The notes under the pieces were generated by a model. It saw only the letters and a program-made list of their open reading frames with translations, was not told where the DNA came from and made no database searches. Source: Escherichia phage EC.P2. Taken from it: a stretch of 64,000 nt of DNA. The number at the start of each line of letters is the position of its first letter. Positions within the stretch are counted from its first letter, which is position 1. The stretch is taken from the sequence record PQ631072.1; one strand, 5' to 3'. Shown here piece after piece: positions 731 through 13,237 of the stretch. Made by a program: the position numbers and the translations under genes.

Positions 731-858
731 ATGGGTATGCGTATGATAATCATTCTCATTTGTAAATGAGAATCATTATCATTTAATTATGTAAATGATA
801 AGCATTCTCACTAAGAGAATGAGAATCATTAGCAAATGAGAATTTTTCTCATTTACAG
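731..858. promoter_or_regulatory. Array of Fur-box-like hexamer repeats (GATAAT/ATTATC units)
   Basis: tgataatcattctcatt, aatgagaatcattatcatt, aatgataagcattctcact, gaatgagaatcattagc; aatgagaatcattatc matches the E. coli Fur consensus core aatgataatcattatc at 15 of 16. Confidence 0.45.
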
Positions 859-1115
859 AATAACGCGCAGGGGCGGTGTTTGTCTCGCGCTCCCGTGTCC
901 CCTCGCCATACAATAAGAATAGCATAACCAACAACAAAAGCAAGCGATTATTTTTATCTTTACATTTCTTTACAAATTTATTTTGGACGAGCTACCGGCG
1001 ATCAACCTTCCAACCAGTGCCCCCTGGTATGTTAGCCCCGCCTTTACGCCGTGGGGGTGGCGTTTCCTCTTCTGTATGTAAAACAGTATAAGCCCGATCC
1101 CTGGGCTTGTCAAGA

Positions 1116-1382
1116 TTATTTTTTGTTTTCTTGCCAGGATAGGACACCTAACCAAAAATACATGTCGCCCCGCGCCCCTGGCGGGATCTTGCTTTCCCCG
1201 CCGCCACTGCAAGCCCATAGATAACCATCAGCGAACGGATCAAAGTTTTCTATTTCTTCCACCTTATGATCGCCCAGGTTGAGAACGGTTTCAACCTTTA
1301 AGCCCGTTGCGCTTGCTACCTGGTGCACCGTGCCGCCTTGCCAGCCCAATGAGTGCATGAGATGTAAAGGAGTATTTGTCAT
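1116..1382 (-). CDS. Hypothetical protein (88 aa) in a GC-rich islet
   Basis: ORF with AAGGG RBS; GC-rich codons atypical for the window; no recognisable motif. Confidence 0.3.
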   Translation of the reverse strand: MTNTPLHLMHSLGWQGGTVHQVASATGLKVETVLNLGDHKVEEIENFDPFADGYLWACSGGGESKIPPGARGDMYFWLGVLSWQENKK

Positions 1383-1493
1383 GGTATCGCCCTTTCTTTG
1401 ATGTGCGCCCTGGTTGGCGCGGTAGAAAGATAATAGCCGTTTCCTTTATAGATAGCAAGCAAAAAAGAAATGAAAAAAAGATTAAAAAAATGG

Positions 1494-1522
1494 TTGACGT
1501 TCCTCACCTGGTAGCGTAGTAT
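1494..1522 (+). promoter_or_regulatory. sigma70-like promoter (ttgacg-N17-tagtat)
   Basis: -35/-10 hexamers with 17-bp spacer, upstream of GC hairpin and RBS of gene 1578. Confidence 0.6.
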
Positions 1523-1577
1523 TCATCTTGTCGAGGGGCGGCAATAGTGCCGCTCATAACAGAAGAGAGAAATAATC

Positions 1578-1850
1578 ATGGCATCATATAGCGCATCAAT
1601 GATCGTAGCTGGCATCACTGGTAAACCTATGCGCGGTGGCGGATCTTTCGCTAACATCAATATTGATGGACGTTTATCCCTGGACGCAGCGATCACAGTG
1701 GCACGGGAAACGTTTAAAAAAGAATGTAATTTCAATAAACAAGATTATCTCGGTTTCGCTATTGAAAAAACCGCGCGCTTTGTGGATTATAAAAGCCCGA
1801 AAATGATCGACACTACACTAAAAGCGCAAGATGTAGCGTTTTTGCTTTAA
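1578..1850 (+). CDS. Hypothetical early protein (90 aa)
   Basis: ORF preceded by promoter, 5' hairpin and RBS. Confidence 0.55.
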   Translation: MASYSASMIVAGITGKPMRGGGSFANINIDGRLSLDAAITVARETFKKECNFNKQDYLGFAIEKTARFVDYKSPKMIDTTLKAQDVAFLL

Positions 1851-1853
1851 GGC

Positions 1854-1882
1854 TTGACACTGAAAAATAATTTGGTAATATA
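1854..1882 (+). promoter_or_regulatory. sigma70-like promoter (TTGACA-N17-aatata)
   Basis: Consensus -35, AT-rich -10; followed by hairpin 1893-1914. Confidence 0.6.
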
Positions 1883-1892
1883 TACCACGTAA

Positions 1893-1914
1893 GGCGGGGA
1901 AATGGTTTCCCGCC
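1893..1914 (+). other. Conserved 5'-UTR GC hairpin ggcgggGAAATGGTTTcccgcc (representative of about 16 copies)
   Basis: Inverted repeat between promoter -10 and RBS; no downstream T-tract. Confidence 0.7.
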
Positions 1915-1936
1915 AAATCAAAGAAAGGGTAATGCA

Positions 1937-2299
1937 ATGAGCAAGCAAATCAATACTATCATGTTTAATCTGGTATCTTTCCGCGATGACGTGAAAAATC
2001 TTTCGCGTGATGCAGTGGATGCACGGATCGAAAGCTATCGCACACAGATCGCAACATTACCGTTAAAACGTGATCAACATGCCGCTAATATGATGCTTGA
2101 TGCTATGATTAAAAAGATGATTCAATGTGATCTTACCCTGGCTTATGAATATGCTGGCGATCTCTTTGTAACATATAGCAAGCCCGTTCCAGGTATGAGC
2201 ACCACGGAAGAATTGCATGCCTTAAATCTGCGACAAGATGCATGGGATAACATGCGCCGTGTTATGGTATGGGTAGAAAGCGGTAAAATTTACGAATAA
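1937..2299 (+). CDS. Hypothetical early protein (120 aa)
   Basis: ORF; promoter, hairpin and RBS upstream. Confidence 0.6.
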   Translation: MSKQINTIMFNLVSFRDDVKNLSRDAVDARIESYRTQIATLPLKRDQHAANMMLDAMIKKMIQCDLTLAYEYAGDLFVTYSKPVPGMSTTEELHALNLRQDAWDNMRRVMVWVESGKIYE

Positions 2300-2377
2300 A
2301 AACGGTTGACATTGCACTAAAACCTGATAAGCTATCTTAAAGCGGGAACTATTCCCGCTTACATAGGATAAAACTTT

Positions 2378-2524
2378 ATGAAACAATATGTAATGAGTAT
2401 TCACACCAAAAACGGCGCTACTGTTACGACTCCGGCACGGTTTGCACTTGTAAACCGTTGCAAGAGACTAAAACGAGAGCTAAAAAATAACCGTGCAACG
2501 GGCTTTAAACGCTGGGGAGGATAA
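2378..2524 (+). CDS. Small basic hypothetical protein (48 aa)
   Basis: Short ORF after hairpin 2341-2358; below the ORF-track cutoff, found by reading. Confidence 0.35.
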   Translation: MKQYVMSIHTKNGATVTTPARFALVNRCKRLKRELKNNRATGFKRWGG

Positions 2525-2526
2525 TC

Positions 2527-2787
2527 TTGTTTTTTCTAAAAGTTTTTGATAATGTGATCGCTTTTGAACATGCTACAACGTTCGACCTGGCGAGATACGC
2601 TATCAGGTTTAAAGATAATGTTTATCCCCGTGCTGGCGGCGGTTACACTATTTTTAATCATCGCAACGCGCAACTGACTGATGTAACTAATCCAGATCCT
2701 GGAGTGTATCGGATAGGCTGGCTACCGTCAAAAGACGCTGCAAGCATGTTTAAGGTATGTAAACTACTAACAGAAGAGGCGAACTAA
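2527..2787 (+). CDS. Hypothetical protein (86 aa, probable TTG start)
   Basis: ORF with GGAGG 7 nt upstream of TTG; no ATG alternative. Confidence 0.35.
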   Translation: MFFLKVFDNVIAFEHATTFDLARYAIRFKDNVYPRAGGGYTIFNHRNAQLTDVTNPDPGVYRIGWLPSKDAASMFKVCKLLTEEAN

Positions 2788-2788
2788 C

Positions 2789-3343
2789 ATGGGGCGTGAA
2801 TATGTGATCCAGTCCTGGGTAAAGCATGACGCAAATGATCCGCGCATAATACCAGATGACATGATCGATCACATGGTAGGGTATAGCGGGGAGCAGATAG
2901 GAAATCGAGCGGCAAAGAGCAACGGCAACACCAGGACGCGATCCGTTCGTCCTGGATGGCTGGCGAATGGTAACGCTGACATTGCAAGCGCCGCAGATCC
3001 AAGCGATGACGCTAAAAATAATCCCTTGTACAGCATTGATCCGGCTTTTAAGGTGTTGGAAGAGTATCCCGCTAAATTAGCCGCACTAGATAAGGCATAC
3101 GAAGAAAAGCGCATGGCCTGGACTGTATACAACACCGCTAAAATGGTGCTAGATGCAAAATTGATTAAAGCCCAGGAGAAGATCAATAAACTTGTTACAG
3201 TAGCGCAAGAGGAAGACCAGGGCGACCAGGAGGAAGAGGAAGAAATCATGCCCACCCTGGAAGAGGAAGAGATCCAGCCATACATGCCGACGGAAGAGGA
3301 AAAAAGACAAGCCTTAAAAAATTATGAAAATTGCATTGTGTAA
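2789..3343 (+). CDS. Hypothetical protein with acidic E/D-rich C-terminus (184 aa)
   Basis: ORF with RBS; low-complexity EEEE tract. Confidence 0.55.
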   Translation: MGREYVIQSWVKHDANDPRIIPDDMIDHMVGYSGEQIGNRAAKSNGNTRTRSVRPGWLANGNADIASAADPSDDAKNNPLYSIDPAFKVLEEYPAKLAALDKAYEEKRMAWTVYNTAKMVLDAKLIKAQEKINKLVTVAQEEDQGDQEEEEEIMPTLEEEEIQPYMPTEEEKRQALKNYENCIV

Positions 3344-3424
3344 GGCTTGACATATGCAAACAAGCCCCGTAATATGTACCACATAAAGCGGGGCAACGCC
3401 CCATAAGGTGAAATAAAAAATCAC

Positions 3425-3452
3425 TTGACACCTGAAATCAGTAAGCTATAAT
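3425..3452 (+). promoter_or_regulatory. Consensus sigma70 promoter (TTGACA-N16-TATAAT)
   Basis: Perfect -35 and -10 hexamers. Confidence 0.7.
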
Positions 3453-3489
3453 GCTTATATAGATTGAAACATTACTAAGGAATAAAAGC

Positions 3490-3669
3490 ATGGCTATTAT
3501 TGCAAAGACTGAGATCGTAGGTTTAGATTCTATCATCCTGGCATATGAGGAAGCTATAGAAATGTATGTGGTTTCCTATGGTGAATATATTCGTGAATAT
3601 AAATCTATTGATCTAGCTTTTGAATGCTATATTCGCCAGGTCAATAAAGCATATGATGATTATCGTTAA
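3490..3669 (+). CDS. Small hypothetical protein (59 aa)
   Basis: ORF downstream of consensus promoter and RBS aagga. Confidence 0.4.
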   Translation: MAIIAKTEIVGLDSIILAYEEAIEMYVVSYGEYIREYKSIDLAFECYIRQVNKAYDDYR

Positions 3670-3688
3670 AAGTTTTAGTCTTGTGCTA

Positions 3689-3717
3689 TTGACAACGAAC
3701 GATAGTACAAGCATAAT
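3689..3717 (+). promoter_or_regulatory. sigma70-like promoter (TTGACA-N17-cataat)
   Basis: Hexamers read directly. Confidence 0.6.
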
Positions 3718-3764
3718 AACTTTTATCGGGAATACTCCTAACTAATCAAAAGAGATTAAAGACT

Positions 3765-4130
3765 ATGGCTAAAAATATCAATGTTTCTGCTTATGCTACC
3801 CTGGCTAACACTGCTAAAATTGAACTATCCAGCATTGAAGCGGTACATATTAGCGCCCGTCGCTGGTTTCAAAAGTCTTATGGCAATACTTATTTCTCTT
3901 TGATGGTTGACGTTGAGATCGGCGGTAAACTGATTGAAGTCGTTAACGTTCCGTTTCAATATGGCTATGGGGATCATTTTGATACCGTTGCCCTAGAAGA
4001 GTTTAGCAAGGTTATCAACCTGGAAGGTAAAGACTTTTCAAATTATGCTTACCTTTCCCGTTTTTGCCGTGACAATGGGATCGCTGTATACAGTCATGCA
4101 AGCGATGTAAAACGTAAAAAAGATTTATAA
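3765..4130 (+). CDS. Hypothetical early protein (121 aa)
   Basis: ORF with RBS and promoter. Confidence 0.6.
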   Translation: MAKNINVSAYATLANTAKIELSSIEAVHISARRWFQKSYGNTYFSLMVDVEIGGKLIEVVNVPFQYGYGDHFDTVALEEFSKVINLEGKDFSNYAYLSRFCRDNGIAVYSHASDVKRKKDL

Positions 4131-4136
4131 AAAGCA

Positions 4137-4164
4137 TTGACAGCACGAATAAAAAGCATATAAT
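4137..4164 (+). promoter_or_regulatory. Consensus sigma70 promoter (TTGACA-N16-TATAAT) followed by hairpin 4178-4194
   Basis: Hexamers read directly. Confidence 0.7.
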
Positions 4165-4218
4165 ACTTATATCGAGAGCGGGAATAGTTCCCGCCTCACT
4201 GAAAAAGAGATTAACATC

Positions 4219-4458
4219 ATGGCTAAATCTAAAATGTACAACGGTCACAAAAATAAAACTCATTGGAATGTAAGCCTTTGGATTAATAACGATCCAGGTT
4301 TTTATAATATGGCAAAAGAATTTATAGCCGTGAACAACAATAAAGATAACGCCGCGCGTGAAATGATGGCACTACTTAACGAAATGGGCCAAAATACTAC
4401 GCCAGATGGCTATAAATTCAGTAAAACCAGTATCCGCGCCGCTATGGTAGGAATGTAA
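4219..4458 (+). CDS. Hypothetical early protein (79 aa)
   Basis: ORF; promoter, hairpin, RBS. Confidence 0.55.
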   Translation: MAKSKMYNGHKNKTHWNVSLWINNDPGFYNMAKEFIAVNNNKDNAAREMMALLNEMGQNTTPDGYKFSKTSIRAAMVGM

Positions 4459-4467
4459 TAAAAGCAG

Positions 4468-4495
4468 TTGACAACGTTTTTTAATCTGGTAAAGT
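4468..4495 (+). promoter_or_regulatory. sigma70-like promoter (TTGACA-N16-TAAAGT, TG-extended) followed by hairpin 4506-4527
   Basis: Same module recurs at about 5348, 8005, 8869, 9851. Confidence 0.6.
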
Positions 4496-4549
4496 TTATC
4501 ACATAGGGCGGGAAATGGTTTCCCGCCAAATGAAAGAAAGGTTATCATT

Positions 4550-4777
4550 ATGGCTATCGTTATTGTTCGCGTATCCGGTACGGTTGGAATCTCTCAGGTA
4601 GTAGCAGTTATCACAGAGAAGAAAGGGGATGATCTTCACTCCTCCTTGAATAGCTGGGCGGTCGCTAACTTTGGGCAATGGTCGAGCGTTGAGTACATCG
4701 AATCCTACCAGGTGCCAACGATTAGCCTAACTGATCTCAACGTTGATCGCTTGTTGTGCCTGGATCAATTAAACTAA
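4550..4777 (+). CDS. Hypothetical early protein (75 aa)
   Basis: ORF; promoter, hairpin, RBS. Confidence 0.55.
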   Translation: MAIVIVRVSGTVGISQVVAVITEKKGDDLHSSLNSWAVANFGQWSSVEYIESYQVPTISLTDLNVDRLLCLDQLN

Positions 4778-4864
4778 AAATAATATTGACAAGATAACTA
4801 AAATCAGTAAAATGTAATGCATAGGGCGGCAATAGTGCCGCTCCTAGTGAGAGAGATTATCAAA

Positions 4865-5080
4865 ATGGCTAATATCCGCACCTTGTTAAAAAATGCAAAG
4901 CAAGTTTTATTTTCAGATGACGAATATTTTAATAAAGATATTACAGGCGTGAAAAATCTTAAAGATGTGAAAGATGTTATCGGTATCCGTGGATCTTTAC
5001 GTAAAGGTGACATATACGGTAACAAGGTGCAATATAAATTGTCAAAAGATTATGATTTTACTTTGACAATTATTTCATAA
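4865..5080 (+). CDS. Hypothetical early protein (71 aa; start moved to internal ATG after hairpin)
   Basis: Track ORF 4817 starts inside hairpin 4824-4843; ATG 4865 has an RBS. Confidence 0.5.
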   Translation: MANIRTLLKNAKQVLFSDDEYFNKDITGVKNLKDVKDVIGIRGSLRKGDIYGNKVQYKLSKDYDFTLTIIS

Positions 5081-5170
5081 AACTACTTGCAAACCTGGTA
5101 AAATAAAGTAAACTATATTCATTAAGGCGGTGGAATAGCCCACCGCCTAACAAAGAGAAGAGGAAACATC

Positions 5171-5341
5171 ATGATCACTTTCGCCACCCGTGAAGCCGCT
5201 CGCAACGTTGCACGTAAAGTTAACGCCGCCAACCTGGGCGCTACGCTTAAAGCCCCGGTGAAAGATGAATCAGGAAAATGGATCTTTCCTGGTCTGCGTC
5301 ACGCTGATAAGCTGGGAACATTAACGTTAAAAAATAAATAA
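5171..5341 (+). CDS. Small hypothetical protein (56 aa)
   Basis: ORF after hairpin 5127-5147 and RBS aggaaac. Confidence 0.4.
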   Translation: MITFATREAARNVARKVNAANLGATLKAPVKDESGKWIFPGLRHADKLGTLTLKNK

Positions 5342-5427
5342 TATTCGCTTGACAGTAGCATCATTTATAAGTAAAGTAACAACAACGGCGGGAAATGGTT
5401 TCCCGCCATCAATAAAGAGATAAGATT

Positions 5428-5787
5428 ATGAAATCAGCAAAAGCAATTAAAACTTACATTTTATCGGCTATTTCTTTTGATGGTACTACAACCGAAAAAG
5501 AAAAAATCACCGAACTGATGCGCCGTTTTAATTCTGAATACTGGTATCCCGATAATCAAAAACGTTACAATTATAACGTGATCAAGGCAATAGCCTCATG
5601 GTTACAAGGTTTACCGTCAGAAATCAATATTGCTTTTGATTATAACGAGATCGATCACTTGTTAATTGAATGGAAGTACATAAAAGAAACAAGCAAAGAA
5701 ACAACCGTTACCCGTGAGCGGGAAAATTATTGGTTATATATTGCAAGCATGATCGTAACTTTGGCAAAATATCATAACGTAGCGTAA
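5428..5787 (+). CDS. Hypothetical early protein (119 aa)
   Basis: ORF; promoter 5348-5376, hairpin 5388-5407, RBS. Confidence 0.6.
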   Translation: MKSAKAIKTYILSAISFDGTTTEKEKITELMRRFNSEYWYPDNQKRYNYNVIKAIASWLQGLPSEINIAFDYNEIDHLLIEWKYIKETSKETTVTRERENYWLYIASMIVTLAKYHNVA

Positions 5788-5801
5788 TCGAGAGGAAAAA
5801 C

Positions 5802-5939
5802 ATGAACGCATCACAGCAGATCGAAAAATTCAACCGCAACAAAGCGCGTAAAGATTGGAACGAAGAGATCACCAAGAAAGGCGACAAGCGGAACAAAACA
5901 AAAAGAGATCGCAGCACTAAAAGACACTGGAACGGATAA
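5802..5939 (+). CDS. Small Lys/Arg-rich hypothetical protein (45 aa)
   Basis: Short ORF with RBS gagagg, followed by terminator. Confidence 0.35.
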   Translation: MNASQQIEKFNRNKARKDWNEEITKKGDKRNKTKRDRSTKRHWNG

Positions 5940-5945
5940 CAAAAA

Positions 5946-5966
5946 GGGCGCAATAAGCGCCCTTTT
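5946..5966 (+). terminator. Rho-independent terminator (gggcgc-aataa-gcgccc + TTTT)
   Basis: GC stem-loop followed by T-run. Confidence 0.6.
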
Positions 5967-6057
5967 AGCTTATATAGAGGCTTGTTACCCATAGGCAATG
6001 GTAACGCCAGGGCAAGCCTATAAATCAACGTTAGACAGCTTTACAGGAGCTTTAAAA

Positions 6058-6240
6058 ATGAAATTAGACGAAATAAGCAAGGCACTAGCCCAGGGGCAAA
6101 GGTTATGCGCCCGATATCGTGATCAATATGGTTTCATAACTAGCGGCGTGATCCTGGGGATTGAAGGAAATAAAATTTTTATTGACACGTTGAAAAACGT
6201 TGTATATAGTGACAATATAATCTCAATAAAACATATATGA
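6058..6240 (+). CDS. Small hypothetical protein (60 aa; start at ATG with AGGAG RBS)
   Basis: Track ORF 5998 trimmed to RBS-supported ATG. Confidence 0.4.
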   Translation: MKLDEISKALAQGQRLCARYRDQYGFITSGVILGIEGNKIFIDTLKNVVYSDNIISIKHI

Positions 6241-6248
6241 GGCAAGAA

Positions 6249-6650
6249 ATGAAAAAATTATTGATCGCTGGTTTAATCTATTTTGGCATGGTTGGAACAT
6301 CTAGCGCGGCGATATCCTCCACAGTAGCAGAATTAAGCGCCGTTGATGCAATGGAAAACGTCATGATCATTAATAACGCGATCCCCGATGAAATCATGGA
6401 GGATTCACACATGATCGCTTATGGTGCTGTTACACAATTAACGGCAAAAATAGATAAATCTATTGTTAATGGCTTAAATGAAGATGTGCCATGTGAAATT
6501 ATTACCAGTGTGCTCACTACTCAAAATTTTACGCCGTGGTTAAAAAGTATTCAAAAAGTACACAGTACAGCCGCAGATCGTAGCAATGAAAAACTAGTGT
6601 CAGCACTTGCAACGTATACCCTAGCAAAATGTACCGAGATAAAAGATTGA
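6249..6650 (+). CDS. Putative secreted protein with N-terminal signal peptide (133 aa)
   Basis: MKKLLIAGLIYFGMVGTSSAA hydrophobic leader. Confidence 0.5.
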   Translation: MKKLLIAGLIYFGMVGTSSAAISSTVAELSAVDAMENVMIINNAIPDEIMEDSHMIAYGAVTQLTAKIDKSIVNGLNEDVPCEIITSVLTTQNFTPWLKSIQKVHSTAADRSNEKLVSALATYTLAKCTEIKD

Positions 6651-6697
6651 CAATATAGAAAGCACGTTATAAGATACACACAACAAAGGAGAACTAC

Positions 6698-7000
6698 ATG
6701 AACGGCATAGCTAAAACGTTTTTTCTTTTTTCTGGTGTAAATGATCCATCAATAAAAGTCGATAGTGTAAAAGAAAACAATACTATCACAGCTAAATTGT
6801 CTCAAGATGAAACAAATAACGTGCTAATCATTAATCTTAAAGAAATAACAAAAGGTTATTATACTATTGCTTACCATGCGATTTATCATGCTGGTACTAA
6901 TGAGGAAGTGCAAACAAGCAACAACGAAAGCGCGGCGCTACCTGGTAATCTGGTGCTGGGCGTTATCAGTTTAATTGTCAATGATTTTTTTAAGGAGTAA
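6698..7000 (+). CDS. Hypothetical protein (100 aa)
   Basis: ORF with RBS aaggag. Confidence 0.5.
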   Translation: MNGIAKTFFLFSGVNDPSIKVDSVKENNTITAKLSQDETNNVLIINLKEITKGYYTIAYHAIYHAGTNEEVQTSNNESAALPGNLVLGVISLIVNDFFKE

Positions 7001-7329
7001 AACCATGCCCTATTTACATTTATTTTTCGGGATCTTATTGACAGGATCTTTTTTCTTCTGTATGCTTGTTTCTATTGTAAACCACGTTTTAAGACATTAA
7101 GGAAACAGCATGAAAATTATTCCCGTACAGTATAGCGTAATAAATCCAGCATATGAGGAAGGAAGGAAAACAAGCATGGCTTTATGTTGTATTGCTACTA
7201 TAGCCATGTTATTATATATTGTGTTTTAATAGGTTTTATAGTTGTACGCTTTAAAGGCTTGACAATTTTTTGTTATGCTTTAAACTATATCTTGAAAACG
7301 GCAAAGGCCGCAAACAAAAGGGTAAAATT

Positions 7330-7653
7330 ATGAAATCTGTGATCGGTGTTTATTTGGATAACTCTGATTTTTTCTATCATCGTGCGCGTTTACTTGATGC
7401 GATTGAAATGATAGAATCAGGCTTTAAAGAGTATCGCCTTGCACATGATGACCTGGAAGCATTACAGGGCGATAGTGTTTTTACATTGCAAGCTAAAGCA
7501 CTATGCAAAAGCCGGATCGACATTGCGAGCAAAAAGATAGAACGCGGCATGTCCTGGTTGCGCACCGCAGAAATCAACATGGGGCAATGGTACGGCGAAA
7601 ACTTAGAAAATAAACGCCCTTTTGTAAATGTAGAAAATATTAAAGATTATTGA
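7330..7653 (+). CDS. Hypothetical protein (107 aa)
   Basis: ORF; promoter ttgaca at 7263-7268; start trimmed to ATG 7330. Confidence 0.5.
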   Translation: MKSVIGVYLDNSDFFYHRARLLDAIEMIESGFKEYRLAHDDLEALQGDSVFTLQAKALCKSRIDIASKKIERGMSWLRTAEINMGQWYGENLENKRPFVNVENIKDY

Positions 7654-7735
7654 TTGACAGCACACCTGATAAGTAATATATTGTATCTCATAGAGCGGGG
7701 AAATGGTTTCCCCGCCTTAACAGAAGAGATAAGAT

Positions 7736-8020
7736 ATGAAGATCACAAAAGCACTTTCCAACTATGCAGCACGTCGCGGCTTATGCTTAACCGTTGAAAA
7801 CTTAGGGAAAGAAGATTTTTTGTGCTTTTGGGAGCTTGAGAATGATAATGAGTGGATCTTCTCTTATTCTATCTGCAAAGATCAAAATGGTTGCTTGTTA
7901 ACCTGGCGCGGTAATATCTATTTACCGGAAGAAATAAAACAAGAATTACCAGGCACGATCATGACTGAGAAACAGCTTAAGGAAGTGATCAATTTTGTAG
8001 GGCAAAACATTAAAAAATAA
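7736..8020 (+). CDS. Hypothetical early protein (94 aa)
   Basis: ORF; promoter 7654, hairpin 7695-7716, RBS. Confidence 0.55.
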   Translation: MKITKALSNYAARRGLCLTVENLGKEDFLCFWELENDNEWIFSYSICKDQNGCLLTWRGNIYLPEEIKQELPGTIMTEKQLKEVINFVGQNIKK

Positions 8021-8104
8021 TTTGACAGTAGGCAAACAACGTAGTAAAGTTTACCACATAGGGCGGGAAATGGTTTCCCGCTCACAACAAAAGAGAAACA
8101 AATC

Positions 8105-8275
8105 ATGATCCCGACTATGTTTTACGTATCGCGCAAAGGTCACAATATTTTTTGGTCTGAAGATTTAAATGAAGCCATGACGTTTGCCCGTGATCGTGTT
8201 GCTATCGGTGGCGTTAATATTACCGTAACCGATGAAAACGGCATTGAATACTACAACGGCGACGATGAAGAGTAA
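8105..8275 (+). CDS. Small hypothetical protein (56 aa)
   Basis: ORF after promoter 8005 and hairpin 8061-8081. Confidence 0.4.
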   Translation: MIPTMFYVSRKGHNIFWSEDLNEAMTFARDRVAIGGVNITVTDENGIEYYNGDDEE

Positions 8276-8322
8276 TTAATAAGGCGGGGGAGTATTCCCC
8301 GCCGTCAATAAAGAGATAAATC

Positions 8323-8592
8323 ATGAAAATAACATTAGATGACGCAATCAAGGCTATCGAATCCGGTTACACCCTGGTAAAAGATGATAAGGCTAAAATA
8401 GTGCATCATGTTAACAAGGAAACAGGCGAAAGCATGATCACGTATAAAACTGCTTACTTTCTCCAATGGGTAGTAAACCCGCGCATTCAAATAAAAATTA
8501 CTGTGGCTATTGCTAAAAAATTATGTGCTTTACAGGGCACAAGTTTTAACGAGATCCCGCCGTGTTTTGACTGGTCGAGCTTGAAAAAATAG
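8323..8592 (+). CDS. Hypothetical early protein (89 aa)
   Basis: ORF after hairpin 8283-8303 (no separate promoter seen). Confidence 0.55.
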   Translation: MKITLDDAIKAIESGYTLVKDDKAKIVHHVNKETGESMITYKTAYFLQWVVNPRIQIKITVAIAKKLCALQGTSFNEIPPCFDWSSLKK

Positions 8593-8672
8593 TTTGACAA
8601 TAATTATAAATAGGGTAGAATGTATTGCGTAGGGCGGCAATAGTGCCGCTCACAACTAAAAGAGAAATCATC

Positions 8673-8867
8673 ATGGCGCTTAAAAAACTAACAAGCAATA
8701 CTCGTTGGGATGAAATTGACGGGGAAGTATACATTTTCGCCCGTAAACCAGGTGATCAAAAATGGTCAAAGGCTTTTACTTGTCACCCTGCAACAATAGA
8801 TCTAATAAAAAGTAAAGGTTTTCGTGAAGCAGTAGCGAGAAGTTTACTGATCCCTTGTAAAAAATAG
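8673..8867 (+). CDS. Hypothetical early protein (64 aa)
   Basis: ORF; promoter 8594-8621, hairpin 8632-8651; start trimmed. Confidence 0.5.
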   Translation: MALKKLTSNTRWDEIDGEVYIFARKPGDQKWSKAFTCHPATIDLIKSKGFREAVARSLLIPCKK

Positions 8868-9246
8868 TTTGACAATATGCGGTTATCTGGTAAAGTGTAC
8901 CACGTAGGGCGGGAAATGGTTTCCCGCCAGAATAGAGAGAACTAAAATGATTATTCTTACCATGATGTGCGCGGCGGTTATTATTCCTTTGATAACGCTT
9001 ATTGTTTCTGAGATCGATGATCTTCTCTTTGAAAGAAGTTTAAAAAAGTAATTGACAACGGCTAATAAGCTGATAATATGTATCACATAGGGCGGGGCAA
9101 TAAGGCAACGCCCACTAATGAGGGTAGCATCATGTTAGAGAAAATTTTCACGGTTGTAATAGTGGGCCTGGCGTTATCGGTTGGAGTGATTGCAACTATG
9201 GCTAACATGATTCTATCTTCCCACGGTATTGGATAAGGTGAAACAA

Positions 9247-9462
9247 ATGATCACGAACAAAACAGGTAAAACGGAATTTTTACGTAACTTGCAGATCGGC
9301 AAGCCTGAGATCTGGTATTGCACTAAAACACCACGTGACGAAATGAAAGATTTCACCGCTACTTTACAACGTGTTAAAATATCTATCACACAGAAAAAAG
9401 CCTTGATAGTTGCAGAAAACGAGATCCCGCAAACCATTATCATTGTTGAGCGTACAGCATGA
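9247..9462 (+). CDS. Hypothetical protein (71 aa)
   Basis: ORF with RBS aaggtga. Confidence 0.45.
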   Translation: MITNKTGKTEFLRNLQIGKPEIWYCTKTPRDEMKDFTATLQRVKISITQKKALIVAENEIPQTIIIVERTA

Positions 9463-9845
9463 AAACAGAAATCATTATTGAAATCATCAACGGCTATAAA
9501 GAAGCCTTTATTTTTGCCGAACCAGCGACGGATCACAATGGGGAATATATTGAGAATCTAGGCGATTATGATTTTTCAGATCAAGCCCATCAGCGGATCA
9601 TTCATGACGTAGCGGCTTATTGTGATGCCAATGATGCGGCTATCTCTGAGGCAATGAGCGACGGCGCAACAGCAAACCAGATCGGGAATGATTTACATTT
9701 TACCCGTAACGGTCACGGCGTTGGTTTTTGGGATCGCCCTGAAATATACACTACTAACACAGCAAACCGTTTAACTAATGCAGCTAAATTAATGCCATCG
9801 GTGCATGCTTACATTGGTGAAGATAATTTGATTTATATTGAATAA
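9459..9845 (+). CDS. Hypothetical protein (128 aa)
   Basis: ORF overlapping upstream stop (ATGA). Confidence 0.55.
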   Translation: MKTEIIIEIINGYKEAFIFAEPATDHNGEYIENLGDYDFSDQAHQRIIHDVAAYCDANDAAISEAMSDGATANQIGNDLHFTRNGHGVGFWDRPEIYTTNTANRLTNAAKLMPSVHAYIGEDNLIYIE

Positions 9846-9932
9846 AAGTATTGACACCGATCCCCAATATGGTATTATTTACCACGTAGGCGGGAAATGG
9901 TTTCCCGCCAGGTAATCAAAAAGGTAAATACT

Positions 9933-10322
9933 ATGCGCAACCTGGTTTCTGTTTCTAACGTTGAAAAATTCCAATCCTTGCAGGGTATCGTTAACAACGT
10001 AGCGCCTTTTTTAGTCAATGGCTTGATTGCAAAGATGAAAAATAAACATCATGCGGCATGGTCTGCTTACTGCTTTGACAATGATGAAAAAGCGGCTGAA
10101 ATGATGTTAAATATGCTGTTAGACAGTGTAGAATCATCTTTACCGGAAAACATCGCAGAAGAGATCACCTATCGTTATAATATGGCGATCACTTACCAGG
10201 AGGTTGCGCAATTTAATATGATGGACGATGACGAACAACAGGATCAGGAAATTTTCTGGGAGTATGCTGATCGTCAATCGGCTTTTGATGAAAAGTTAGC
10301 GATGTATTATAATGAATATTAA
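9933..10322 (+). CDS. Hypothetical early protein (129 aa)
   Basis: ORF; promoter 9851, hairpin 9889-9908; start trimmed. Confidence 0.55.
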   Translation: MRNLVSVSNVEKFQSLQGIVNNVAPFLVNGLIAKMKNKHHAAWSAYCFDNDEKAAEMMLNMLLDSVESSLPENIAEEITYRYNMAITYQEVAQFNMMDDDEQQDQEIFWEYADRQSAFDEKLAMYYNEY

Positions 10323-10337
10323 TACACGGTAAAAGAA

Positions 10338-10363
10338 AGGGGCGCACTAAGCGCCCTTTTTTG
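10338..10363 (+). terminator. Rho-independent terminator (aggggcgc-actaa-gcgccct + TTTTTT)
   Basis: GC stem-loop followed by T-run. Confidence 0.7.
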
Positions 10364-10784
10364 TATTCTTTTTTCACGATGGAAACAACACGTAAAGAAT
10401 AGGCGTAAAGGTGGCGTAAAACCATCTAAAACCGATTGTAACCGTTTAAACAAGGTAGGAATGATTAATCACCTTGCCAGGATGAAAAAGCTGTTATAAA
10501 GCTATATAGGGCGTTTAAAGCACATAGGAAATAATTTGCTTTTTATCTTGCCTTTTATTCTGCTTTTGATTATTATTATGGAACGGGCGGCACCTGGGAA
10601 CAGGGGAAGATAATCACCGGACGACCCCGCTATATATTGATAGCTAACATCTATCAAACAACAAAACATCAAAGGAATAAACTATCAAATCTTTACAATC
10701 TCATCTATTGACCGGTAAATCATAGCAGTTTAATATTGTTTTTAGAGGGTAGAACATACCCAAAACGAAAACAGGAAAAAGAAA

Positions 10785-11021
10785 ATGAAAGAAGTCATGA
10801 TCCTCAAAAAATCACCTATTTTACGTGGTGGCTTTATCGCTTACTCTGATGATCTGTTAATTGCAACGGTTGCAAAAATACTAAAATCAGAAGAGGATAG
10901 TAAAAACGGCGTTTATCGTATCTGTTTCACCCGTGGGAAATTGCAAGGCAAGATCGCCTATGCTTTTGATTTACAAGATGTAAATGATAAAATCTGCGCT
11001 GTTATTGATTATGCAAAATAA
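10785..11021 (+). CDS. Hypothetical protein (78 aa)
   Basis: ORF; promoter ttgacc at 10708. Confidence 0.5.
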   Translation: MKEVMILKKSPILRGGFIAYSDDLLIATVAKILKSEEDSKNGVYRICFTRGKLQGKIAYAFDLQDVNDKICAVIDYAK

Positions 11022-11108
11022 TTAACTTTCTTATTGACACCGGATCACGCTTACATTATTATTTATCACGTAGGGCAAATCATTTTAAACGGTAAACGAG
11101 GAATCACC

Positions 11109-11492
11109 ATGAGCAATATCATCAACCTGGCGGCTACTGTAAACGGTAAAGACTTTAACGGCGCTGTAGATCGTGATCCTATGTGGTGCTTATCAGTGTT
11201 TAAAGGCGATCTGGTTGAAGTTAGAACAACCGAAGGTTATAGCGACGATTATAAATGCGAGATCCATTTACATAACTGGTACACGGGTAAAACTTATGCG
11301 CTGAATCACGCGTTTATCGGGAAAATTGAATATCGCGAAATGATCGACGAAGAAACGGGGCAAGATTTTAGCGATTATGTTTATATTCGTTCCGAAACAT
11401 TAGCCGAACGGTTGATCGAGAAAATGAAAGCAAAAAATAAAATTAATTTAACTCATTGGATTGATATAACAAACGATCCAGCTTATCAGTAA
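11109..11492 (+). CDS. Hypothetical protein (127 aa)
   Basis: ORF; promoter ttgaca at 11043; start trimmed to RBS-supported ATG. Confidence 0.5.
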   Translation: MSNIINLAATVNGKDFNGAVDRDPMWCLSVFKGDLVEVRTTEGYSDDYKCEIHLHNWYTGKTYALNHAFIGKIEYREMIDEETGQDFSDYVYIRSETLAERLIEKMKAKNKINLTHWIDITNDPAYQ

Positions 11493-11508
11493 ATAACATT
11501 CCATACAA

Positions 11509-11534
11509 GGGCGCAATAAGCGCCCTTTCTTTTT
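11509..11534 (+). terminator. Rho-independent terminator (gggcgc-aataa-gcgccc + T-run)
   Basis: Same stem sequence as terminator 5946. Confidence 0.65.
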
Positions 11535-11739
11535 ACCTCAATAAAGATGATAGCTTTTACCTATCAAAAACGTTCACCGAAAAAAGTGAATAGATCGCGG
11601 TATCGAGCTAATCAAGGAGCAGATGAATAACCATACCATGAAGATCATAAGGCGCTTACAACGTGTTTTAGACCGCTTATTTTTAATTTCTCCATGTAAC
11701 TATCTGGCAAAAACAGCCTTTTTCTTATCTTTCCTCTTA

Positions 11740-11820
11740 AATAATAATCATTCTCATTTATAGCTGATTATTTATGCAATAAACTGAATAATGCAATAAT
11801 GATAATCATTCTTAACTTAA
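11740..11820. promoter_or_regulatory. Fur-box-like repeat cluster (second region)
   Basis: aatgataatcattctcatt and aatgataatcattctt. Confidence 0.4.
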
Positions 11821-11829
11821 GACCATCTA

Positions 11830-12130
11830 ACCTATAAAATAATAAGTTATCTAACTAAATTAAAACTAATTATCTTACTTTTATTTATAACTTACTGTTA
11901 CTACCTCATTGATAACCTTATATTAAACAACAATAACTAATATAAATCATTACTAAGCTAAATATAATCTATCTAACCTTTAAAACTATAACTATAATCT
12001 ATTTAATTATTGCACAAAGTAACTATTAAATCGTTAGTAACATTACTAAATAATTAATATCCTATCTATTTATGATCTAATCTTTACCTTACTATCTATT
12101 ACCTAAATAATCATTTCGTACCGTAATCAT
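11830..12130. repeat. About 300-bp tract almost devoid of G on the + strand, with degenerate short repeats
   Basis: Only about a dozen G in about 300 nt by eye; strong strand compositional skew. Confidence 0.6.
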
Positions 12131-12654
12131 TTCATACAATAATTATAACAAGAAATATAATTCGCAAGCGTATCATTAGCAGCCTATGCCGGACACATAG
12201 GCGGCTAATAATAACGCAACTACACATCCCACATAATAACCATCACCGATAGTTATTATTTGTGCTTATGTAGCTTGCAACAACTGCAAGCGCAACAATA
12301 TACATGGTATATTGTATTCCCTTACATTGTTGCGGTGCGTTATTATTAGCTAATGTTTGGAACATTGGCTATAATATAAGCTATCCAATAATAAACATAG
12401 TGAATAATAACCCTGATGATCATAATGCGCCACCTTCCAGGGGGCGCTATGTGAACACAAAGAAATCTTTCTTGTCAAGAAAAATATTACCATTATTGCG
12501 CAAAATTATTTACATCTGAATAGATGGTTTTTCATACTATTGCCCCCAAATTATGCCCCTTTTGTTGCAATATAAACTACTATTTGTTGAGCCTACTTTC
12601 TTAAAAGCGCAATAAATTAGAATTATCTTGATTTTTAGGACGTTTTATAGTATA

Positions 12655-12885
12655 GAAAGTATGCAAATGATAATCATTATCAGCTATCTTCCACGGGTGG
12701 CACTATTTCACGCAGGATCATTTCATTTGGCAAGGTGTATATAGATGTTTAGACTTGCCAAGTCATTGATTTACTTAGAATTTATCTGTTTTGTTGGGAA
12801 TAGTGCCTTTATTGTTCAGAAAATAATCAAAAGTCTTATAAGTCATTGAATGATAATGCAAATGATAATAATTCTCATTGATATT
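12655..12885. promoter_or_regulatory. Fur-box-like repeats incl. perfect core aatgataatcattatc (12664-12679)
   Basis: Also gaatgataatgcaaatgataataattctcatt near 12845. Confidence 0.45.
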
Positions 12886-13237
12886 TGAGGGGGACGGTCG
12901 GCAGAAATCGGGGGCGCTGAAAATCGCGTTAAGCACCTCTCGCAAGCGAGCAGTATTTTGCGGCAAGTTATTGATATTATTGACTTTACGCTTATGAAAA
13001 GGGGGTGTGTCGAAATAAATCGGGTATACCGGAAAATTTTTGTGGCATAGATATTTATTTGTCTATATTATGTACTAAGGGGTGTGTTAAAAATAATAGG
13101 TATATATAGAATAATTGATAGGGAAATCCTATACTAAATCCTTCATTAATGATGTTCCTATGTTGCTGTCCTTGTAACAGATGAAAAGACGCTGTATGAT
13201 GTGTGGCATGAAACGTAAATTTATAAAGGAGTCTGAT

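Follow-up and report, generated by a model that had tools for sequence, protein, structure and literature searches.

Fur-like palindromes in the non-coding DNA of phage EC.P2

The non-coding DNA on either side of the early gene block of Escherichia phage EC.P2 carries nine copies of a 21-bp palindrome that matches the binding site of the host iron regulator Fur. The DNA analysed here is a stretch of 64,000 nucleotides from sequence record PQ631072.1 (hereafter the window, with positions counted from its first letter), and it comes from a phi92-like myovirus of the genus Justusliebigvirus, subfamily Stephanstirmvirinae. Over the segment from 300 to 1500 its identity is 99.7% with Escherichia phage W22 and 93-98% with many other records. 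Two non-coding regions, 303-1577 and 11493-13180, enclose the early genes, and all nine palindromes in the window lie in non-coding DNA: five at 741-854, two at 11739-11817 and two at 12665-12880, referred to below as sets A, B and C. The reading that we favour, and hold with about even confidence, is that they are selected sites for host Fe2+-Fur which would act locally in cis, in an architectural or blocking capacity, and not as operators of early promoters.

741-854, no strand assigned: set A, five Fur-like boxes (21-mers starting at 741, 764, 793, 817 and 834; spacing 23, 29, 24 and 17 bp)
11739-11817, no strand assigned: set B, two Fur-like boxes (21-mers starting at 11739 and 11797), found by motif scan
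12659-12685, no strand assigned: box C1 of set C, with the perfect 15-mer TGATAATCATTATCA and a weaker overlapping site offset by 6 bp; 17/19 to the classical consensus
12846-12887, no strand assigned: box C2 of set C, the array GATAAT-GCAAAT-GATAAT-a-ATTCTC-ATTGAT, found by motif scan and alignment

The nine copies, flanks included, give the consensus AAATGAkAATCATTmTCATTT. In most of them the palindrome is imperfect: one half reads GATAAT and the other GAGAAT, and the T/G difference is not compensated in the opposite arm, which argues for a protein site and against a hairpin. A search of the window with the classical 19-mer Fur consensus GATAATGATAATCATTATC, allowing up to three mismatches, gave five matches in 64 kb where 0.05 are expected; all lie within the two non-coding regions, and the best agrees with the consensus at 17 of 19 positions. 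With the 15-mer 7-1-7 core TGATAATNATTATCA and up to two mismatches, boxes were recovered at 744, 767, 796, 820, 11742, 11800, 12668 (a perfect match) and 12863, and the ninth copy, at 837, has three mismatches. Tallied against the core TGATAATnATTATCA, one copy has no mismatch, three have one, four have two and one has three. Dinucleotide shuffles of the two AT-rich non-coding regions, a local null that uses the regions' own sequence and dinucleotide composition, gave expectations of 0.02 and 0.08 boxes compared with four and four observed. For the genome outside the window we used W22, which is 99.7% identical; in these remaining 85 kb there are only two comparable boxes, both of them intragenic and both without the AAA/TTT flanks.

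These counts bear out the earlier note on this DNA, which had reported Fur-like boxes in both non-coding regions, albeit with corrections of detail. The copy of aatgataatcattatc that it described is present at 12666-12681 rather than 12664-12679, and the one-mismatch copy aatgagaatcattatc lies at 765-780 rather than 757-772. What it took for an array running from 11740 to 12885 consists of boxes at the two ends only (11739-11817 and 12665-12880), with hexamers at background density in the 830 bp between them.

Rfam searches of both regions, at gathering and E-value thresholds, returned only chance miRNA-like matches on the palindromes, and a scan of viral contigs with GGTGTTTGTCTCGCG gave mostly chance matches, with true relatives at 5 of 48 loci. 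A BLAST search of E. coli genomes with the box cluster gave no match at E values up to 1, such matches being too short for a 28-Gb database.

Similarity to host Fur operators

A position matrix was built from the nine phage boxes alone and run against a 40-kb stretch of E. coli MG1655 surrounding the enterobactin cluster. The top six hits all fall in three intergenic regions, fepB-entC, fepA-fes and fepD-entS. Together these account for 1.8% of the sequence scanned, and they are footprinted Fur sites (PMC2189734). At the ryhB locus the sole hit is the Fur operator that immediately precedes ryhB. Scores with this matrix are 22-33 for the phage boxes and 12-25 for the host operators, so the phage boxes would rank among the best Fur sites in an infected cell.

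The fine structure of the sites is also similar. Natural Fur clusters contain sites offset by 6 bp and runs of GATAAT-like hexamers (PMC2189734), and overlapping sites with this same offset are present at 12659/12665 in the window, at 9655/9661 and 9690/9696 in phage T5, and at 2016/2022 in phage phiWec190; the C2 array supplies an example of adjacent NATWAT hexamers. Compared with the E. coli operators at fepA-fes, fepB-entC, ryhB and iucA (a 19-bp box in the 9-1-9 model), the phage boxes have in common the consensus and its GAGAAT variants, the extended hexamer arrays, the 6-bp offsets, and mutual recognition by a single matrix. They differ in that they do not lie over sigma-70 promoters, in that they are separate and 23-35 bp apart whereas the E. 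coli clusters are compact, and in that they occur in a virulent phage, in its terminal repeat and beside iteron-like repeats.

The consensus match, the specificity shared with host operators, and the 6-bp offsets and hexamer runs make the palindromes, in an operational sense, predicted Fur boxes, and host Fur is likely to bind them. The host Fur specificity suggested in the earlier note is supported: the matrix recovers the fep/ent and ryhB operators, a tblastn search for a Fur homologue encoded by the phage gave noise only (E values above 3), and the boxes hold equivalent positions in different genera, as described below.

Set A and the conserved non-coding element

Set A is placed between a group of direct repeats and a conserved element through which a strong promoter reads towards the boxes.

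501-721, + strand: AT-rich, iteron-like set of three direct repeats (67-79 bp each) that borders set A on its left, found by repeat search
856-1078, no strand assigned: conserved non-coding element adjoining the last set A box, defined by the ten-lineage alignment
1085-1113, - strand: near-consensus sigma-70 promoter TTGACA-17-TATACT, leftward through the element towards set A, found by promoter scan
1578-11492, + strand: early block, consisting of small genes and lying between sets A and B, from gene and promoter maps

The conserved element (856-1078, or to 1118 with the promoter) is found in 236 phage records of the Stephanstirmvirinae and Vequintavirinae, and its indels are not multiples of three, indicating that it is not coding. 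We aligned ten lineages (the window, phAPEC8, Klebsiella phages KP2025 and FBKp34, PVP-SE1, 4MG, ABPH49, phiTE, Mydo and CR3), and in every one of them one to five boxes lie directly upstream of the element, with the last box at a constant distance from it. The modal spacing between box starts in these arrays is 29 bp. The 3' half of the element (957-1082) is 80-87% identical even in CR3, phiTE and Mydo, and the element contains a duplicated word, TCTTTACA. All ten lineages also have a counterpart of the leftward promoter (TTGACA or TTGCAA, a spacer of 17-18 bp, and TATAnT), the spacer of which is a GC-rich hairpin in each case. RNAalifold predicts weak and similar structures on both strands of 856-1118, and this segment has no Rfam match. 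The boxes are confined to non-coding DNA, and their position relative to other cis elements is kept across genera.

The three-repeat layout to the left of set A, with a different sequence, is also present in PVP-SE1, 4MG, Mydo, CR3 and phiTE. As a candidate iteron-type origin, the set A locus has the three 67-79-bp repeats (24% GC), the Fur boxes and the strong adjacent promoter; an initiator protein and a skew switch were not found there, and no DnaA boxes were found in either non-coding region.

An open reading frame (ORF) of 88 aa at 1116-1382 on the minus strand is convergent with the conserved element and has no Pfam family. Small minus-strand ORFs are annotated at this position in PVP-SE1 (gp201), 4MG, Mydo and KP2025.

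Set B and the terminal repeat

Set B lies about 210 bp past the terminator of the last early gene, and phiWec190 (Phapecoctavirus) and Klebsiella phage KP2025 each have a box at the corresponding position. Set C lies within the direct terminal repeat (DTR) of the genome.

12590-12931, + strand: direct terminal repeat, the physical genome ends, assigned by homology to phi92 DTR-L and DTR-R
12759-12771, - strand: IHF-consensus site WATCAANNNNTTR, midway between C1 and C2, found by consensus scan

Stephanstirmvirinae genomes have been stated to end in direct terminal repeats (PMC12695924), and a 342-bp repeat has been reported for phage BME3 by PhageTerm (PMC12210895). The curated DTR-L (1-343) and DTR-R of phi92 are identical to each other and map to 12590-12931 in the window. 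Seven other records, from five further phages, start at window position 12590 among the matches listed, UAB_1 has its left terminal repeat annotated at the equivalent position, and the last 342 nt of the BME3 record map to 12590-12931. The repeat is 342-343 bp long and holds the two set C boxes (12665-12685 and 12860-12880); the number of boxes is nine per genome and 11 per virion DNA. On the physical map, the early block and set A make up the final 12.5 kb at the right end.

Measured from the left cut, the repeat has a Fur box at +85, the IHF site at +175, the second Fur box at +280 and the right cut at +342. The two boxes stand nearly symmetrically on either side of the IHF site. This Fur-IHF-Fur layout recurs in phi92, phiWec190, KP2025 and phi1_175008, representing Justusliebigvirus, Phapecoctavirus and the Klebsiella phages, and the record of phi1_175008 begins at the homologous terminus. 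C2 with its hexamer flanks is the best-conserved part of the repeat, with 81% invariant columns compared with 39% elsewhere (three lineages). A second copy of the IHF-consensus site is present at 12964-12976.

In the BME3 record (PP239276.1) the DTR-L feature (2458-2799) is shifted by 73 nt relative to both the phi92-defined repeat and the record's own end. The repeat annotated there corresponds to 12663-13003 and would start exactly at the 19-bp Fur box; we rejected it because of the 73-nt annotation shift. The same record contains redundant copies of the terminal region. An 'attL' annotation on Salmonella phage R7 is automated and was set aside as uninformative.

Two further features lie between set B and the repeat. 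From 11810 to 12160 there is a 350-bp block in which the + strand is almost without G (GC content 0.20, GC skew -0.57 to -0.67) and has repeated ATCTA(A/T); the equivalent block in phiWec190 is A+C-rich. It is followed at 12182-12351, 240-400 bp upstream of the terminal repeat, by a strongly structured element. It begins with the hairpin GCCTATG-ccggaca-CATAGGC, after which a long-range stem of 16 bp, pairing 12203-12218 with 12336-12351, surrounds three hairpins. Its consensus fold in Justusliebigvirus, Phapecoctavirus and one Klebsiella phage has an energy of -60.7 kcal/mol, with 57 pairs and 14 compensatory double changes. The fold is nearly without G:U pairs, so that both an RNA structure and a DNA cruciform are possible, and the element has no Rfam match.

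Related arrays in T5 and other phages

BLAST of the set A cluster matched T5-like phages. T5 has boxes at 9522, 9551, 9586, 9655 and 9690 (spanning 9522-9716), all inside the annotated injection stop signal at 9140-10149. A DnaA box adjoins the array, the major nick (the 7.9% nick, at 9748) follows shortly after it, and the 10,219-bp terminal repeat has its inner end about 500 bp away. The set A box at 764 (AAATGAGAATCATTATCATTT) is identical to the T5 box at 9655 in all 21 bases. The T5 array region matches 533 records, 411 of them over at least 80% of its length, and the matrix confirms boxes in two distant T5-like phages, Pectobacterium phage DU_PP_V (of a second subfamily of the Demerecviridae) and one Klebsiella phage, with spacings that are again commonly 29 or 35 bp. 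In the most detailed account of this T5 region, its direct repeats and palindromes are described with no binding factor except DnaA, and Fur and iron are absent from the text (10.1101/866236). We found no homologues of the T5 first-step-transfer proteins, including A1 and the DNA-binding A2, in the phi92-like genome, and a host factor is therefore the economical explanation for boxes common to the two groups.

The T5 injection stop signal (Repeat Region 3, with palE-J, DRC repeats and DnaA boxes) resembles the EC.P2 arrangement in being an extensive stretch of non-coding DNA that lies some 10 kb from one end of the genome and follows a sigma-70-driven early block, and T5 carries five to six of the same boxes, one of them identical. 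Unlike EC.P2, T5 has 10-kb terminal repeats, DnaA boxes and nicks. To our knowledge, two-step injection is not known for phi92-like phages. The suggestion in the earlier note that the arrays are replication or injection control sequences is plausible and gains indirect support from the location in the terminal repeat and from the T5 injection-stop arrays. The likeness to a T5-type stop signal extends only to the box arrays and the general layout.

Host iron repressors do act on other phage DNA, stx1 of Shiga-toxin prophages being under Fur and tox of corynephage beta under DtxR. A Fur box also lies upstream of sitABCD on temperate lambdoid phages (PMC6969025), and this was the only such case in the literature searched, which gave nothing on Fur for T5, Phapecoctavirus or lytic phages; the rV5 paper merely labels a 'non-coding' box (PMC3606486). 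As here, a host iron repressor site is present on phage DNA, but the stx1, tox and sitABCD sites are single promoter operators of cargo genes in temperate phages, whereas the EC.P2 boxes form non-coding arrays in virulent phages with no gene to regulate. IHF at sites such as lambda cosB offers another parallel, in that a host DNA-binding protein has its site between phage cis elements near the terminase cuts, as in the terminal repeat here. Fur, unlike IHF, is not known in such a role.

Proposed role of the boxes

The Fur pool of a cell is some 5,000-10,000 monomers, an abundance sufficient to bind the boxes on entry, and iron-loaded Fur would be expected to coat them as the DNA arrives. In the terminal repeat, an IHF bend could bring the two Fur sites and both ends of the repeat together, and Fur and IHF may then serve as architectural factors when the genome ends are formed, paired or protected. 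Set A lies directly in the path of leftward transcription from the 1113-1085 promoter, beside the iteron-like repeats. Fur bound there would most plausibly be a roadblock or insulator between this promoter and the repeats, in which case a leftward transcript reaching the iteron block would depend on iron.

Control of the early genes is a different matter. Most of the genes at 1578-11492 carry their own near-consensus sigma-70 promoter, and about 20 of these promoters, at 1854-11062, have a perfect TTGACA. No box overlaps any of these strong promoters, which makes classical control of the early programme unlikely, and no conserved sigma-70 -10 element overlaps the boxes in the aligned lineages. 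The iron- or Fur-responsive early programme envisaged in the earlier note finds no support in these maps.

Several points weigh against a local architectural or blocking role. T5 is routinely grown on fur mutant hosts, and Fur is consequently not essential for T5. A roadblock or architectural role of Fur has little precedent; overlap with a sigma-70 promoter is seen for about 83% of the Fur clusters of E. coli (PMC2189734), and here no strong promoter lies over a box and the candidate -10 and -35 elements are not conserved, so that the classical mode of action is absent. Box number differs among lineages, from one to five, and in the Klebsiella phages C1 is weak and shifted by some 27 bp. The IHF consensus is degenerate, with 10 matches in the window. 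Finally, everything beyond the sequence itself is inferred.

A wider form of the proposal would make Fur and IHF structural cofactors at the genome ends and at the first-entry DNA boundary in three or more groups of large virulent phages of enterobacteria (the Stephanstirmvirinae, the Vequintavirinae and the T5-like Demerecviridae), with DNA entry, end pairing or packaging checked against iron status and with the T5 palindromes being Fur sites. We regard this as speculative, and rather improbable in its entirety.

Operators for host regulators on phage DNA were known before only as promoter switches for the cargo genes of temperate phages, and predicted high-affinity Fur sites as conserved non-coding cis parts of virulent phages would be a new context. 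The phages affected include many therapy candidates of the phi92, phAPEC8, rV5 and PVP-SE1 groups as well as the model phage T5, whose injection-stop palindromes, described since the 1980s without a binding factor, gain a testable candidate in Fur. The prediction is that phage DNA transactions would be linked to the iron status of the host, which is the main nutritional cue both in the gut and during infection. Replicating phages may also perturb Fur-controlled host physiology.

Alternative explanations

The alternative that fares best is that the boxes are classical Fur operators which repress overlapping phage promoters, giving transcripts only under iron limitation in the manner of RyhB. 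The candidate is a rightward non-coding RNA of about 205 nt, running from near 862 to a terminator-like hairpin at 1046-1070. A -35-like TTGAAT and a -10-like CAGAAT flank the last set A box, and in the Vequintavirinae the last box lies between these two hexamers, 18 bp apart; the ryhB Fur box overlaps the ryhB promoter in a comparable way, and on its + strand the conserved element shows a stem at the 5' end and, at the 3' end, a hairpin followed by a U-rich tail. The critical bases of these hexamers are not conserved, however. The A at -11 is lost in KP2025 and phiTE (CGGAAT) and in Mydo (CTGAAT), and the -35 is absent from the Stephanstirmvirinae, where GCAAAT, GTAAAT or CAAAAT is found instead. 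For these reasons the rightward promoter TTGAAT-18-CAGAAT was demoted as a candidate. Both flanks may be read equally well as further hexamers of an extended Fur array, there is no strong promoter under a box, and the structure predictions leave the strand open. We consider classical operators possible but unlikely.

Titration of Fur, also raised in the earlier note, is weakened by the present data. In this case the boxes would serve only as a sponge during phage replication, derepressing host iron uptake or altering free iron, and the plasmid-based Fur titration assay is a precedent for derepression by cloned sites. The number of boxes per genome and per virion DNA, with scores above most host operators, the ent sites scoring 12-22, is in keeping with a sponge; 100-200 genome copies would match the Fur pool given above, and T5-like phages have a similar number of boxes. 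A sponge does not need fixed positions, yet from one genus to the next the boxes keep their exact place with respect to the repeat boundaries and the conserved element, and some lineages, such as PVP-SE1, have a single box. Moreover, T5 degrades host DNA in first-step transfer (from the annotation of the T5 record), which would make host derepression pointless there. As the selected function, titration seems to us quite unlikely; it is possible as a side effect.

A phage DNA-binding protein of Fur-like specificity, or the terminase small subunit, could occupy the palindromes instead of host Fur, and a phage protein as binder had likewise been put forward in the earlier note. What speaks for it is that the boxes lie beside iteron-like repeats and in the terminal repeat, where initiator or packaging proteins are expected, and that many small early proteins have no assigned function. 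Against this, three phage groups of widely differing gene content have the 21-mer and the 29-bp spacing in common, and a perfect consensus site would bind Fur anyway. The phage has neither a homologue of the T5 first-step-transfer proteins nor one of Fur, and Pfam searches of six ORFs (five in or beside the non-coding regions and the first early gene) gave no match above family cut-offs. We regard a phage protein in this role as very doubtful.

It is extremely unlikely that the palindromes are RNA hairpin terminators or DNA cruciforms with a chance likeness to Fur sites, since, although they are palindromic and one is flagged as terminator-like on the minus strand, changes in the arms are uncompensated while the Fur consensus is kept, the central loop is 1-5 nt, and the stems are AT-rich with no U tract; the same verdict falls on the separate proposal of the earlier note that the regions bound a 10-kb terminal repeat: region 2 does hold the genome terminus, but the two regions have only boxes and no long repeat in common and the true repeat is the one at 12590-12931. 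Both ideas are largely refuted by the sequence, and the 10-kb block is not a terminal repeat.

Other features

Several records whose phages are labelled Campylobacter, Acinetobacter, Pseudomonas or Serratia share 89-97% identity with these coliphages, except that the Acinetobacter record has only about 72%, over the conserved element. The host labels of those records are probably wrong or the result of contamination.

330-339, also 13000-13009 and 13077-13086, + strand: aaGGGGTGTG motif, found by motif scan and unrelated to the Fur boxes

This motif had been described in the earlier note as common to both regions, and it is indeed present at 330, 13000 (with one mismatch) and 13077, albeit at a frequency that is not significant (four compared with 2.5 expected). 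At the 13077 copy, GGGGTGTG is followed 14 nt on by TATATA, and phiWec190 and the Klebsiella phages have both at the corresponding site, just beyond the right boundary of the terminal repeat. The pair may be a phage-specific promoter or protein site.

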